A stretch of DNA of 47,955 bases, from IMG/VR virus record IMGVR_UViG_3300045988_175607, positions 1-47,955 of that record; one strand, written 5' to 3'. Of this stretch, positions 1-4,873 are shown piece by piece (the first letter of the stretch is position 1; every line of letters begins with the position of its first letter). The position numbers and the translations under genes were made by a program. The notes beneath the pieces are model-generated. The model had not been told where the DNA came from, ran no database searches, and saw only the letters and a program-made list of their open reading frames with translations. The DNA comes from a virus.

Positions 1-100
1 TTGGACAATCAGCAACCAAGCTCCGAATAGGAGAAGGCTCATCGACTATCGAAATTAATAGTAGAGTAGGGAATCCCCGAAGCGCAAGAAATTCAAGCTT
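1..100 (+). ncRNA. 3' core segment of a group I-type intron (gyrB/nrdD family) that begins upstream of the window; 5' strand of a hairpin (90-100 aattcaagctt) whose 3' strand is at 4843-4853
   Basis: cgactatcgaaa...gtagagtaggg...ccgaagcg.aagaaattcaag at 42-100 is collinear with the 3' cores of the nrdD introns (34991-35075 and 36612-36660). 90-100 is the exact reverse complement of 4843-4853. Confidence 0.55.
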
Positions 101-144
101 AAATAATTATGGACAAAATAAAAATAAAATAAAGGAGGTGTAGT

Positions 145-777
145 ATGGCCGCTGAAAATACTCCAATTCTATATACAGATTTATCGTCACTTATTACTCG
201 TTTACAAAACGTTTATACTACACATGGTTTAAGTTGGGATTGGAATGTATCTGGTAGCGAAGTAGGTGTTTACCCTCTTTCCACAGAAATAACAACACTT
301 TATAATAAATTCGTTGCTGCTCAAACAGAAGAGCATTTGGCAACTTGTGTAAAATGGACTATTGTCAATGGGGAACTAAGTTCTGGCTCCCCTTTGAAAG
401 ATGAAACTTTGAATGCGGCAGCTGCATCTCTCTTATCTATGGAAGCGAAAACGCATTATTCAAGAGTGGTTAATACTGCTGGTGCATTATATACACAGAC
501 CTCTCATTCTAATCAAACCACTTATAGCGAATCTTCTAATACAGCTGGTACTTCTTATTCAAATACCAGTAATGGTCGTAATTGCACTCAAAACTCTTCA
601 AGAAATGCTCAAAGTGGCAATAGTTCTAAATGCGGTTGCCATGTTGTATATAGTAGTGATTGTAGCCAATCCACCAATAGTGCAACAACCACGTATTCGG
701 AAACTTCATATAAAGCCGGCACAACTTATAGTCAAACAACAAATTCAAATGAAACCACTTATACATTTTCAGAATAA
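145..777 (+). CDS. hypothetical protein, C-terminal half made of Ser/Thr/Asn/Tyr-rich T-(T)-Y-S repeats with scattered Cys; candidate repeat precursor or structural protein
   Basis: Strong RBS aaaggagg 8 nt upstream of the ATG; 210-aa open frame; repeats TTYSESSNTAGTSYSNTSNG...TTTYSETSYKAGTTYSQTTNSNETTYTF. Confidence 0.6.
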   Translation: MAAENTPILYTDLSSLITRLQNVYTTHGLSWDWNVSGSEVGVYPLSTEITTLYNKFVAAQTEEHLATCVKWTIVNGELSSGSPLKDETLNAAAASLLSMEAKTHYSRVVNTAGALYTQTSHSNQTTYSESSNTAGTSYSNTSNGRNCTQNSSRNAQSGNSSKCGCHVVYSSDCSQSTNSATTTYSETSYKAGTTYSQTTNSNETTYTFSE

Positions 778-789
778 AAAGGTGAATAA

Positions 790-1236
790 ATGAATATTGA
801 TATAAATCAAGAGCCTATTGAAATTTTATTTAATATTAATAATATATTAAAACAAAATCAACTAGGGGAAGAAGAAAAACAGCAATTATCTGATATTTGT
901 GACATTCTATTGGAAAAAATAATTACTCGTCAAGGAAAATATCAAGTTATTCCTGTTGTAAATGATAATAATTATGATAGTGGCTATTTTGTTTCTTCAT
1001 TAGATTATCTTACAAAGCCATATCAAATACATGAACATAAATACATTGATAATGGCAATTTAAAATTGACTGAAGTATATTATACTGGCGCAAATGGTTT
1101 AAAATATCGAAAAGTTGCTTTTCCTGAAGTTTATAGAGACCCTGGTTTTTTATTGAATAATTCTTTGCTTGCCGAAAGACAAAAAAATATGGCATATCTT
1201 GCAAATAAACGTAATAAGGAGAATAAGAACATATGA
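790..1236 (+). CDS. hypothetical protein
   Basis: ORF of 148 aa; RBS aaaaggtgaa; translationally coupled (ATGA overlap) to the next ORF. Confidence 0.5.
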   Translation: MNIDINQEPIEILFNINNILKQNQLGEEEKQQLSDICDILLEKIITRQGKYQVIPVVNDNNYDSGYFVSSLDYLTKPYQIHEHKYIDNGNLKLTEVYYTGANGLKYRKVAFPEVYRDPGFLLNNSLLAERQKNMAYLANKRNKENKNI

Positions 1237-1550
1237 AAATTGGTATTTCATGTGATACAAATAATCAAACCTATGATATTCCTGATTTTTGGAATATTGA
1301 ATTTGGTGATAAAGAAGCTTTAGCCGAAACCCGTTTTTCATCTATTGGTCAAATTACTAATGCAAATCCTGCTGATCCAACACTTAAAAATATGAGCTTA
1401 AATTTTAAAGATTTAAATTCATTGGTGATTACCATTTATAATGATGATGGTGTTGCAATATATACTCAGATTTGTAATCGTTTAATTTATGCTATTCGTC
1501 GCGTAAATACAGAAAATAATTTTATAGAAAGTTTGTACTTCGTATCGTGA
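1233..1550 (+). CDS. hypothetical protein
   Basis: ORF of 105 aa; RBS aggagaataag; ATGA overlap with flanking ORFs. Confidence 0.5.
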   Translation: MKIGISCDTNNQTYDIPDFWNIEFGDKEALAETRFSSIGQITNANPADPTLKNMSLNFKDLNSLVITIYNDDGVAIYTQICNRLIYAIRRVNTENNFIESLYFVS

Positions 1551-1797
1551 ATGAATCTTTAATTAGTTTTACTTTATTTGGTCAAAAAATTGATATTTTA
1601 GAAAATATGGTAAAACAATGGGATTTAATTAATAGTGACGATGGTGTAGTTTTAACTCTTTTTAATTGTAAATTAACAGAATATCCGCATGAAATTTTTA
1701 ATGTTATTCTTAAAGGTGTGGATTATTCTAATATTCCCGCTTCAATTAATCCAATAGGTAATGATACATAGATTATAATTTTAAGGAAACATTTTTA
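1547..1797 (+). CDS. hypothetical small protein (74 aa to the TAG at 1769, or 82 aa if TAG is read through to the TAA at 1795)
   Basis: Coupled ORF; terminal TAG followed by 8 in-frame codons and then TAA. Confidence 0.4.
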
Positions 1798-3125: not shown

Positions 3126-3130
3126 AAAAT

Positions 3131-3427
3131 ATGAAAACTTGTTATATTATTGATGGAGAAAAAGAACATCCTCATGAAAATATTCCAGAAAAATGTTTAC
3201 AAACAATTGAGGATTCTAAAATAGTATTTTTTTATATAAAAAATGATAATAAAAGAAGTATTATTAATATTATGCGAGAAGAAGTATATGGGATTCATGA
3301 CTTTATATTAATAATAGATGATATTCCTTATAATATTGACCATACTGTATATAATACTATAATTAAAAATGAAAATAATGCCGTTTATGAATTTTTAACA
3401 TTTTATCGTAAAGAGGAGCAAGTTTAA
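3131..3427 (+). CDS. small protein between the two radical SAM genes (possible RRE/PqqD-like partner; speculative)
   Basis: 98-aa ORF, position only. Confidence 0.4.
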   Translation: MKTCYIIDGEKEHPHENIPEKCLQTIEDSKIVFFYIKNDNKRSIINIMREEVYGIHDFILIIDDIPYNIDHTVYNTIIKNENNAVYEFLTFYRKEEQV

Positions 3428-3430
3428 TAC

Positions 3431-4816
3431 ATGTCTTTTAAAAGTGAAAATAATGAACTCTTAAAATTTATTCTTGATACAGCTTTTTTCTCTGGATGGA
3501 GTGATAAAAATTGTTCATCAGATTTAAATGGCGGCTCTCGTGTTAGTTCTTTAGAATTATATGTAACTTCTGAGTGTAACCAAAAATGTGAATATTGCTA
3601 TTTAAATCGATATGGCGACAAACTTTACCCTGCCGAATTACGCAATGAAAAAACTATTCTTAATAATCTTGATATATTATTAAAATATGCTGTAAAAAAT
3701 TGGCCATATTTAAAACATATCGATATATTTAGTGGAGAAATTGTAGGCACTCAGATATTTTTTAATGTATTAGATATAATTAAAAAGTATAAAGAACAAG
3801 GATTAAATGAATTAGAAGAAATTATTGTTCCCACTAATTTTTCTTTCATTCATAGCCAAGAAATGACTGAAAAAGTGCAAAATTATATTGATGATTTTAA
3901 TAAAAATTATAATATGCGATTAGTGCTAAGTGCATCTATCGACGGTTATATTATTGAAGATTTTTCTCGTCCTCAAAAAATATACCATAAACGAGATATG
4001 GATTTTTATCATAAATCATTTCAATTTATGAAAAAAAATGGATTTTGCGCTCATCCTATGATTGCCGCTTGTTCAATTGATAAATGGATTGAAAATTATA
4101 AGTGGTTTATTGATATGTGTGAGCAATATGATTTTAATGTATTGCAGCAAGTAATGACATTAGAAGTTAGAAATGATGATTGGACTGATGAAGCGATTTC
4201 GCATTATCAAGAATTTTTAAAGTTTTATTGTGATTATCATTTTGAACATCGATATGATAGCAATCCTAGAAAATTTGCAAAAATGTCTTTAGGCTTAAAC
4301 GAAGAACGAAATGGATATACCAATTTTCTGCTTTTGGATGCAACTCAATTTCCCACTTGTAGTGTAGCCTATCAACTTACAGTAAGATTGGGAGATCTTT
4401 CTATTGCTCCTTGTCATCGTACTGCATATCCTGAATTTTTGTATGGGAAGTTTATCGTAGAAAATAATGAAATAATTGATATAGAAGCCAATAATCCAGT
4501 AATAGCAACTAAAATTTTACTTTCTAATCAAAGAAAAACTCATCATGGTTGCGATACTTGTTGGAATGTTAATAGTTGTATTAGAGGATGTTTTGGCGCT
4601 CAATATGAATATGGCGATGAGCTTTTCATGCCTTTACATTCAGTTTGTAAAATGTTTAAAGCTAAAACTCGTTGTTTAATACAGTGGTATAAAAACCATG
4701 GAATCATAGACGCTATAAAGCAAATTGCCCAAGAAGAGAAACAATCTCAAATAGAAATCCAAAAGTTTCTTGAAGTGTTTGAAGAAATTGATAAACGTTC
4801 ACAAATAGAAGAATAA
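3431..4816 (+). CDS. second radical SAM/SPASM enzyme
   Basis: SECNQKCEYCY (CxxxCxxC); C-terminal CDTCWNVNSCIRGCFGAQYE. Confidence 0.8.
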   Translation: MSFKSENNELLKFILDTAFFSGWSDKNCSSDLNGGSRVSSLELYVTSECNQKCEYCYLNRYGDKLYPAELRNEKTILNNLDILLKYAVKNWPYLKHIDIFSGEIVGTQIFFNVLDIIKKYKEQGLNELEEIIVPTNFSFIHSQEMTEKVQNYIDDFNKNYNMRLVLSASIDGYIIEDFSRPQKIYHKRDMDFYHKSFQFMKKNGFCAHPMIAACSIDKWIENYKWFIDMCEQYDFNVLQQVMTLEVRNDDWTDEAISHYQEFLKFYCDYHFEHRYDSNPRKFAKMSLGLNEERNGYTNFLLLDATQFPTCSVAYQLTVRLGDLSIAPCHRTAYPEFLYGKFIVENNEIIDIEANNPVIATKILLSNQRKTHHGCDTCWNVNSCIRGCFGAQYEYGDELFMPLHSVCKMFKAKTRCLIQWYKNHGIIDAIKQIAQEEKQSQIEIQKFLEVFEEIDKRSQIEE

Positions 4817-4842
4817 ATAATATTTTTGTCCATATATTATTT

Positions 4843-4873
4843 AAGCTTGAATTAAGATATAGTCAGACTTGTG
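4843..4873 (+). ncRNA. 3' end of the intron-like element that started before the window: 3' strand of the 11-bp hairpin (4843-4853), then the group I J8/7-P7-like motif aagatatagtcagac (4854-4868), ending in G at 4873
   Basis: aagatatagtcag is the same 13-mer as the nrdD intron 1 core at 35082-35094; aagcttgaatt pairs with 90-100. Confidence 0.5.

Follow-up and report, generated by a model that had tools for sequence, protein, structure and literature searches.

Introduction

The td and nrdD (sunY) introns of phage T4 are self-splicing, about 1 kb long, and carry their open reading frames (ORFs) in P6a (td) or P9.1 (sunY); td also has a P2. Here we consider an intron in the phoH2 gene of a gut phage, located in the IMG/VR virus record IMGVR_UViG_3300045988_175607, whose full 47,955 nt were analysed and are called the window below. 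Judging from sequence comparisons, it is very probable that this PIN-PhoH gene is interrupted by a group I intron of 5005 nt with a cargo of seven genes in the loop of its P8 helix. This reading is based on direct observations, which are the precise ends of the intron, its homology, the covariation in its RNA and the constraint by selection.

With the two T4 introns, which belong to subgroup IA2 and likewise interrupt phage genes, the phoH intron has in common the 3′ core GACUAUC...GAGUAGGG...CGAA...P8...AGAUAUAGUC and an insertion located between P7 and P3′. At the td locus, however, a single endonuclease ORF lies upstream of P7, whereas the cargo of the phoH intron is in P8. The closest sequence relative found interrupts the major capsid gene of Bacillus phage SP-15 (NC_031245, a record in which the capsid coding sequence is annotated as joined). 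Along 149 nt of the P3–P7 domain, the 5′ half of the phoH intron shares 78% identity with it (E=1e-23), and the layout of J8/7, P7 and P9 is the same. The intron ORF is also in the P8 loop, with the SP-15 endonuclease ORF lying within a 9-bp P8, AACUCUUAG...CUAAGAGUU. The differences are that SP-15 has one endonuclease gene of ca 0.8 kb, the 9-bp P8, an additional P7.1 and P9.1, and a capsid host gene, while the phoH intron carries 4.7 kb with seven non-endonuclease genes and has a P8 of 29 bp.

In terms of architecture, the closest precedent is the hexacoral mitochondrial ND5-717 group I intron, which holds ordinary genes in P8, two in sea anemones and up to 16 (18–19 kb) in mushroom corals (PMC6545197). 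It is still precisely removed from RNA, the giant forms by back-splicing of a permuted precursor (PMC6545197). As in the phoH intron, several non-endonuclease genes are found in P8, and the comparison is one of architecture. ND5-717 resides in a eukaryotic organelle, is strictly vertical and holds core organelle genes, whereas the phoH intron is polymorphic and carries an accessory cassette, which other phages have outside introns.

According to reviews, the ORFs of bacterial and phage group I introns are homing-endonuclease genes in peripheral loops, with the composite IStrons as the exception (PMC3984707, PMC4227781). In these, for example CdISt1 of Clostridioides difficile, an IA2-type group I intron has an insertion sequence (IS) of the IS200/IS605/IS607 kind (TnpA/TnpB) at its 3′ end (PMC4227781, PMC3984707). 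The IStron makes extra genes harmless to the interrupted host gene, as the phoH intron would. However, the IStron cargo gives mobility and is placed at the 3′ end of the intron, while that of the phoH intron is in P8 and is a putative protein-maturation module without transposase or nuclease, with only 8 nt following P9.

Multi-gene cargo in P8 is thus already known in biology. The preliminary description of this DNA, made from the letters of the window, knew of no group I loop with a multi-gene metabolic cargo, and this was too broad, as ND5-717 carries 2–16 genes in P8 (PMC6545197) and the IStrons carry transposase genes. What stands is a narrower statement: a full-text literature search returned no phage or bacterial group I intron with a multi-gene cargo unrelated to mobility, and although absence there is not proof, such a case is new as far as found.

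The phoH2 gene and the boundaries of the intron

A look-up with the second radical S-adenosylmethionine (radical-SAM) protein of the cargo, c7, retrieved 18 contigs. One of them, L004 (ENA ERZ27250529, 176,020 bp), is identical to the window and extends it upstream, window position 1 being L004 6571. The gene directly upstream, at L004 5620–6462, encodes PIN_4 and the PhoH Walker-A region, and its product of 280 amino acids (aa) is obtained only with TAG as a sense codon. The preliminary description had predicted a PhoH P-loop exon upstream of the window, ending in U, and this is what L004 contains, 110 nt 5′ of the window. When L004 5620–6460 (ending ...CTTGGGT) is joined to window position 4896 (TTTATCC...), an ORF of 1260 nt and 419 codons results, which reads ...SARLG-F-YPGTRDEKLL at the junction. 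The spliced product aligns without gaps across the junction with the unsplit PhoH2 of Alicyclobacillus phage KKP_3916 (SAKLGYYTGNRNEKLL) and that of Bacillus phage Kirov. It has five in-frame TAG codons, three of which align with Gln in KKP_3916, which indicates that the phage reads TAG as Gln. Gene callers break phoH2 into two fragments, and exon 1 is hidden unless TAG is read in this way.

A database search with the spliced protein also found an intron-less allele, P0001, which is full length (419 aa) and 94% identical. It is located on L013, a syntenic contig of ca 170 kb, between the same neighbour genes as phoH2 here, and its DNA is 92.5% identical over both exons. The junction DNA of this allele is GCACGACTTGGGTTTTATCCTGG, that is, GCACGACTTGGGT followed directly by TTTATCC, as predicted for ligated exons (GGGT/TTTATCC). 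The ligated junction of the L004 haplotype is ...CGACUUGGGU/UUUAUCCAGGU, with CCAGGT in L004 where the intron-less L013 has CCTGGT. Because the intron-less allele fixes both boundaries, the extent of the intervening sequence is exactly 5005 nt, made up of L004 6461–6570 (110 nt) and window 1–4895. It follows a U, starts with G and ends with G. The parts of the locus are the following:

L004 6461–6570, upstream of the window: first 110 nt of the intron, with the P1 3′ strand, the P3 5′ strand, the P4 5′ strand, P5 and P5a
1–4895, plus strand: window part of the intron (identity of window and L004; boundaries from L013)
4895, plus strand: omega-G, the terminal intron base, with the 3′ splice site (intron-less allele and restored reading frame)
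4896–5314, plus strand: phoH2 exon 2, codons 281–419 (Pfam PhoH, E=3e-11; ratio of nonsynonymous to synonymous divergence, dN/dS, of 0.05 among intron-bearing lineages)

The 3′ splice site had originally been placed at G4873. This assignment has to be moved to G4895, as G4873 lies inside P9 and the first 8 codons of the ORF at 4871–5314 are intron P9 sequence. This ORF had also been described as the C-terminal half of PhoH. It is indeed a C-terminal piece (only positions 93–194 of the 205 of Pfam PhoH are matched), but with 139 of 419 aa it amounts to the C-terminal third.

A megablast search of window 1–5400 against phage records gave no match, and there is therefore no close cultured relative. 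At least 18 contigs, which come from samples and assemblers independent of one another (ENA, Logan, IMG/VR, metagenome collection), show the arrangement of exon 1, intron with cargo and exon 2, and the phoH intron with its cargo is found in all six contigs L001–L006. Exact-pattern scans of IMG/VR and the metagenome collection found no cargo-free or endonuclease-bearing copy of the intron; all copies carry the cargo.

The ribozyme core

The Rfam model RF00028 matches both halves of the intron. The first match covers L004 6414–6667 (30.2 bits, E=5e-6, model positions 1–159), with P3, P4, P5, P6, the P7 5′ strand and P3′ aligned and the remainder skipped. The second covers window 4790–4886 (28.8 bits, E=6e-6, model positions 176–253), corresponds to the P8 3′ strand, J8/7, the P7 3′ strand and P9, and carries a flag for 5′ truncation. 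It is the P8 loop that separates the two matches, which means that the cargo sits in P8. The suggestions in the preliminary description of a group I-type intron-like element, and of 101–4842 as cargo in an intron terminal loop, agree with these results, since the P8 loop is the location of the cargo according to both the RF00028 halves and the SP-15 homology. The gathering score of RF00028 is 50 bits and the model cannot span a 4.7-kb cargo. RF00028 is absent from Rfam scans of the whole window, at the gathering cut-off as well as at E<=10, because the first window position already lies within P5 and the model is interrupted by the cargo.

The ribozyme amounts to ca 260 nt in two blocks, a 5′ block of 199 nt from P1 to P3′ and a 3′ block of 42 nt with J8/7, P7′, P9 and the terminal G. 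Its elements within the window are:

3–14, plus strand: P5 3′ strand GGA (3–5) and P4 3′ strand TCAGCA (9–14) (RF00028 alignment; P5 U-A to C-G in L017)
16–37, plus strand: P6/P6a hairpin CC..CTCC-GAATA-GGAG..GG (RF00028 alignment; helix table)
44–49, plus strand: P7 5′ strand GACTAT, pairing with 4859–4864 (6 of 6 paired; GATCAT/ATGATC in ICP1 gives two compensatory pairs)
50–82, plus strand: insertion between P7 and P3′ (P7.1/P7.2 region of subgroup IA) with the GAGTAGGG motif and a small hairpin at 69–78 (motif also in the intron of a T4-like td gene)
83–89, plus strand: P3 3′ strand CGCAAGA, pairing with TCTTGTG at L004 6479–6485 (7 of 7 paired; SP-15 CCTCGTG/TGCGAGG, LR756504 TTCTGTG/TGCAGAA)
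90–118, plus strand: P8 5′ arm (18-nt perfect part 90–107, T108, then 109–118; at this site in SP-15, a P8 of 9 bp encloses the endonuclease ORF)
4824–4853, plus strand: P8 3′ arm (4824–4833, 2-nt AT, 18-nt perfect part 4836–4853; assigned as P8 3′ strand by RF00028)
4854–4864, plus strand: J8/7 AAGAT and P7 3′ strand ATAGTC (identical to the RF00028 consensus)
4868–4887, plus strand: P9 hairpin CTTGTG-ATGAAAGT-CGCAAG (U.G to C-G in L017; covarying stems in SP-15, LR756504 and ICP1)

The consensus of J8/7 and P7, the guanosine-binding helix, is AAGAUAUAGUC, and it is matched exactly at 4854–4864. P1 is formed by the exon CUUGGGU and the intron GCUCAAG, with a U.G pair at the splice site, and it covaries in intron 1 of nrdD (CAUGGGU/GCUCAUG). 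The pairing was tabulated by script for five lineages, namely the phoH intron, L017, SP-15, LR756504 and ICP1, the MAFFT alignment of the mini-introns being poor in P3′, P8 and P9. All tabulated pairs of P3, P4, P5a, P6a, P7, P8 and P9 are complementary in the five lineages. Multiple compensatory changes are seen in P3, P5a, P7, P8 and P9, and, within the phoH lineages, in P5 and P5a. For instance, P3 occurs as UCUUGUG/CGCAAGA, CCUCGUG/UGCGAGG and CUUACU/AGUAAG, and P7 as GACUAU/AUAGUC or GAUCAU/AUGAUC.

The 33-nt insertion at 50–82, with its GAGUAGGG motif and covarying hairpin, is a feature of subgroup IA2 (T4 td type), although only one clear hairpin is present. It aligns with the insertions of td and SP-15, and the hairpin at 69–78 varies and yet stays paired (GGG/CCC, GGGG/CCCC, GGGAT/ATCCC, GAGGT/ACCTC).

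Compact homologues that lack an ORF are present in LR756504, a 636-kb uncultured phage, and in Vibrio phage ICP1. The LR756504 homologue (L019, ca 2490–2810) is not reported by RF00028 at E<=0.01, which indicates that the model is insensitive for this intron subclass. In ICP1 (L020), RF00028 matches 513–804, 1632–1929 and 1934–2266 at 77.9, 28.9 and 38.9 bits, respectively, and the third of these is homologous to the phoH intron; the record carries no intron annotation for the three matches. A separate observation is that, in the phoH intron, the strand sequences of P3 recur in P9 (CUUGUG/CGCAAG; L004 6479–6485 with 83–89, and 4868–4887), which is different in SP-15. An alternative cross-pairing of P3 and P9 is conceivable, and the repetition could be either a coincidence or a folding switch.

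The P8 arms

That positions 90–100 (aattcaagctt) are the reverse complement of 4843–4853, as had been noticed from the letters, is correct, but the perfect inverted repeat is longer, with 18 nt at 90–107 and 4836–4853. Beyond a 1-nt bulge the stem goes on with ATGGACAAAA (109–118) and TTTTGTCCAT (4824–4833), to give a total of 29 bp with one bulge and a predicted energy of ca −33 kcal/mol. It is important to distinguish between the two lengths. A perfect inverted repeat of 11 nt is uninformative in 5.4 kb of AT-rich DNA, being present in 200 of 200 Markov shuffles, whereas one of 18 nt appears in 1 of 200. A stronger argument than the length is the position of the arms, the first of which immediately follows P3′ while the second immediately precedes J8/7. 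Three lineages retain the 29-bp P8 despite a shifted bulge.

Whether the arms terminate a repeated mobile element was also considered. In IMG/VR the arm sequence has seven further matches; these lack an inverted partner, lie in unrelated contexts and can be put down to chance. The palindrome AAGCTT borders the cargo on both sides, at 95–100 and 4843–4848. Because of this, and because the homologous P8 of nrdD has a 6-nt loop on a stem of 6 bp, the ancestral P8 may have been AATTC-AAGCTT-GAATT, in which case the cassette would have entered the loop with duplication or re-creation of the palindrome, and the stem would have been lengthened later.

Constraint across lineages

A second intron-bearing lineage, L017/L018, has the same arrangement with cargo proteins that differ by ca 20%. 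Between L004 and L017, the phoH2 exons show a synonymous divergence (dS) of 0.39 and a dN/dS of 0.07, and exon 2 alone gives 0.05. The ribozyme blocks are identical at 201 of 210 and 50 of 53 positions (ca 96%), and the differences include U-A to C-G in P5, C-G to U-A in P5a, U.G to C-G in P9 and a remodelled, still-paired P7.x hairpin. That the two exons and the RNA structure are constrained in this way is expected of a splicing intron and not of a dead insertion. All seven cargo genes are intact in L017, with dN/dS of 0.11–0.5 at dS of 0.6–1.0. With dS values of 0.32–0.39, the intron-less L013 is about as far from the two intron-bearing lineages as these are from each other. Both intron loss and recombinational transfer are possible.

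The cargo cassette

The cargo consists of seven ORFs, rather than the six counted in the preliminary description:

145–777, plus strand: c1, 210 aa, an N-terminal domain and a Ser/Thr/Asn-rich, Cys-containing repeat tail (51% identical to a 231-aa protein of L014)
790–1771, plus strand: c2 (790–1236), c3 (1233–1550) and c4 (1547–1771), small proteins (homologues in the same order in L014; dN/dS 0.16–0.27)
1800–3125, plus strand: c5, 441 aa, radical-SAM, CNLNCRYC (Pfam Radical_SAM E=3e-5; phrog_1802 E=1e-13)
3131–3427, plus strand: c6, 98 aa (homologue in L014)
3431–4816, plus strand: c7, 461 aa, radical-SAM/SPASM, CNQKCEYC (PapB-family ranthipeptide maturase model, E=3e-15 over the full length; SPASM domain)

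These ORFs are tightly packed on one strand, have overlapping or adjacent stops and starts, and possess their own ribosome-binding sites. Together they span 145–4816, which is entirely within the loop: they start 27 nt past the distal end of the 5′ arm and stop 7 nt short of the 3′ arm's distal part, or 19 nt short of the perfect part of 18 nt.

The c5 protein matches the HxsB, DynA and twitch radical-SAM models at ca 1e-7, and the single match of c7 in the PDB is 5wgg_A, deposited as 'Radical SAM domain protein' (E=2.5e-4). The scores are below the curated cut-offs (24.7 and 16.4 against 29.5 bits for Pfam Radical_SAM, 56 against 340 for PapB and 19 against 27 for SPASM), and c5 and c7 are thus assigned at the superfamily level only. 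For c2, c3 and c4 there are no matches in Pfam, PHROG, NCBIfam or PADLOC. No nuclease domain of the homing types was found in the seven ORFs with Pfam, PHROGs and NCBIfam, and there is no coding space left over; likewise, Pfam and NCBIfam gave no matches to a transposase or TnpB. A known defence system was considered as another identity for the cargo and rejected, as PADLOC gave just a weak, generic viperin-like radical-SAM similarity.

All seven genes recur, with their order unchanged, in the unrelated, higher-GC phage contigs L014–L016 (c5 69% and c7 70% identical), where they lie among tail-fibre-like genes and where no intron hallmark motif was found beside the cassette. In the P2-like prophage L022, the radical-SAM pair has Baseplate_J, Tail_P2_I and Phage_tail_fib genes on its upstream side, with holin and amidase genes downstream. 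IMG/VR has 19 loci with the radical-SAM pair, and the intron 5′ domain is near only the locus of the present phage lineage; a profile of this domain matched none of the 18 others. In 14 of 16 loci, a gene for a Ser/Thr/Asn/Gly-rich repeat protein, usually with several Cys (e.g. NSNGTCSNGT), lies upstream of the pair and is mostly adjacent to it. The c1 protein is of this kind, and it is presumed to be the substrate of the two radical-SAM enzymes. From the gene content we infer that the cassette is a maturation module, similar to those for ribosomally synthesised and post-translationally modified peptides (RiPPs), that acts on the repeat protein, with a probable link to tail fibres.

Some further observations concern the distribution of this module. 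The combination of a repeat protein and two adjacent radical-SAM/SPASM genes is widespread in phages and has no family-level annotation (L014 5621–10368; L022 5624–9362; L025–L042). It usually adjoins tail-fibre or baseplate genes, and many of the repeat proteins end in a (I/V)D(I/V)xN(S/A)-like motif. In L029, a phage of ca 159 kb, the radical-SAM pair (6616–9371) is ca 2.4 kb upstream of a phoH2 gene (11113–12579) that is uninterrupted at the intron position, and in L023 the pair is beside AAA_33 and Metallophos genes, which flank phoH2 in the window phage. The placement in these two contigs indicates that the cassette tends toward the phoH2 neighbourhood even outside the intron.

Transcription, proposed mechanism and alternative explanations

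Promoter-like sites occur at chance level (37 against 35.5 expected) in a consensus scan, the consensus of which may not be that of the phage's own promoters. In 1–5500 there are 2 terminator-like sites, against a shuffle expectation of 2.4, and the internal one is a weak hairpin of 6 pairs at 413–427 in c1. No Shine-Dalgarno sequence precedes 4871, which leaves exon 2 without one of its own. Past exon 2 lies the following feature:

5320–5352, reported on the minus strand: terminator-like hairpin (with TTTTTTAT after the stem on the plus strand)

The simplest reading is a single precursor RNA that has the cargo in a loop. Both exons and the cargo-bearing intron probably belong to one transcript, because the scan found no strong terminator-like site before the hairpin past exon 2. 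After transcription of the 3′ block, the long P8 duplex would join the two blocks and the P3/P7 core could form. Guanosine would then attack after the exon U, which is paired with G in P1, and ligation after G4895 would restore LGFYPG. Since the cargo ORFs have their own ribosome-binding sites and are wholly inside the loop, either the precursor or the excised intron RNA could be the template for their translation. The encoded proteins probably cross-link or otherwise mature the cassette's own repeat protein, which is elsewhere encoded beside tail-fibre genes. One can go further and propose that a selfish endonuclease-carrier intron has been turned into a safe harbour, in which the split ribozyme and the 29-bp P8 clamp keep the host gene functional and the excised 5-kb RNA, structured at both ends, serves as a seven-gene mRNA. 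Having no in-frame TAG, the cassette could then be translated independently of the TAG-to-Gln switch that phoH2, with its five, needs. To this extended proposal we would give about even chances.

A number of points weigh against an intron that splices with the cargo in its loop. We infer the splicing of phoH2 from the constraint on the exons and on the RNA structure, and that it is an inference counts here. Neither RF00028 half-match (30.2 and 28.8 bits) comes up to the 50 bits of the gathering score, and the model cannot extend across the cargo; the control introns are also below this score with RF00028, the td intron of a T4-like phage at 42.5 bits and the annotated SP-15 capsid-gene intron at 38. 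The phoH intron has no P2, a weak P10 and just 8 nt past P9. Folding has to wait for the transcription of 4.7 kb with ribosomes on the loop, so that splicing could be inefficient. The promoter and terminator scans are consensus-based and do not cover the phage's own promoters, and an in-frame GTG/ATG at 4871–4876 could start a separate C-terminal polypeptide. In addition, no homing endonuclease was found in the phoH intron to account for the spread of intron and cargo.

Three other explanations were considered. The two ribozyme blocks might reside on separate RNAs, owing to a missed promoter or terminator or to cleavage of the precursor, pair via the 29-bp P8 and ligate the exons in trans. P8 is predicted to be stable as a two-strand duplex (−34 kcal/mol), the td intron of T4 tolerates splits in peripheral loops in vitro, and a consensus scan misses promoters of the phage's own. 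However, the sole terminator-like site between the exons is the weak hairpin at 413–427, at chance level, the promoter-like sites do not exceed chance either, and the dense packing of the cargo genes on one strand does not favour such a split, which we consider unlikely. Alternatively, the locus could be a dead relic, that is, a cassette flanked by inverted repeats inside an old intron, with phoH2 being a pseudogene or coding for two polypeptides. The AAGCTT on both sides of the cargo and the inverted repeats of ca 29 nt can be read as terminal repeats, the GTG/ATG at 4871–4876 could serve as the second start, and the homing endonuclease that was not found would fit a relic as well. Against this stand the purifying selection on both exons in two intron-bearing lineages at dS 0.39 and a ribozyme core that is ca 96% identical with compensatory pair changes, unexpected of a dead RNA. 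The missing Shine-Dalgarno sequence before 4871 argues against two polypeptides, and the repeat sequence has no inverted partner anywhere else in IMG/VR. Taken together, this makes a relic very unlikely.

Finally, a chance inverted repeat, or an assembly chimera that unites an unrelated cassette with phoH fragments, would agree with the 11-nt repeat, which is of a length expected by chance. The true repeat, on the other hand, is 18 nt perfect and 29 bp with one bulge, and the arrangement recurs in at least 18 independently sampled and assembled contigs, including the lineage with ca 20% difference in the cargo proteins. We give practically no weight to this explanation.

If the safe-harbour proposal is correct, the phoH intron would be the first bacterial or phage group I intron with a multi-gene cargo unrelated to mobility, and it would demonstrate in nature that the loop of a ribozyme can accommodate an operon of kilobase size. 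On the reading as a group I intron with a seven-gene P8 cargo, the cargo range of such introns would be widened from one homing-endonuclease gene or IS element to a seven-gene enzyme cassette, and phages would have a route to add accessory modules inside essential or conserved genes without disruption. The locus would also constitute a natural test of ribozyme folding over a translated loop of 4.7 kb with an unusually long P8 clamp, which bears on intron-based designs for circular RNA and gene delivery. Furthermore, the cargo points to a widespread, uncharacterised phage module consisting of a Ser/Thr/Asn/Cys-repeat protein and two radical-SAM/SPASM enzymes, usually located by tail-fibre genes.

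Other introns and genome surroundings

The phoH intron is not the only candidate intron of this phage. The nrdD gene is split by at least two, at 34598–35107 and ca 35693–36700, the second of which holds an ORF at 35903–36607. Removal of the first restores CMG/CRSFL, and neither is reported by RF00028 in the scan of the whole window. The likeness between the phoH and nrdD introns seen in the preliminary description is confirmed. The 13-mer AAGATATAGTCAG is common to 4854–4866 and nrdD intron 1 (35075–35087), the 6-bp hairpin caattc-aaaaaa-gaattg is present just before it in the latter, and for the collinearity of 42–100 with the nrdD intron core, BLAST gives alignments to nrdD intron 1 for 42–100 and for the intron 5′ end (77.5% over 49 nt and 90% over 30 nt).

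In gyrB there is a second intron of group I, at 8666–9847 (1182 nt, after T8665, ending with G9847). It contains a GIY-YIG ORF at 8850–9725 with six in-frame TAG, and it is missing from the gyrB allele of L001, and is thus polymorphic between strains. In the region 18900–19950, a LAGLIDADG ORF (19028–19837) lies just before the C-terminal part of an AAA_24 gene (19952–20578), which suggests a further intron. Another GIY-YIG ORF is located at 15020–15988, downstream of a ligase gene.

In-frame TAG codons occur in some genes only. Apart from the six in the gyrB intron ORF, there are three in the ORF at 15020–15988, the two being homing-endonuclease genes, and three in a PG_binding-domain gene at 5374–6306. 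Several genes at 39–42 kb (39168–41800) have five each, and 24127–25926 also contains TAG. The replication genes and all seven cargo genes have none in frame; c4 ends in TAG, which would be read through. No tRNA or suppressor tRNA was found in the window. Further upstream, ca 4 kb from phoH2, L004 1–1432 encodes a protein of 813 aa that matches Pfam MVP_shoulder (major vault protein shoulder) and, weakly, Vault_3, which is unusual for a phage.

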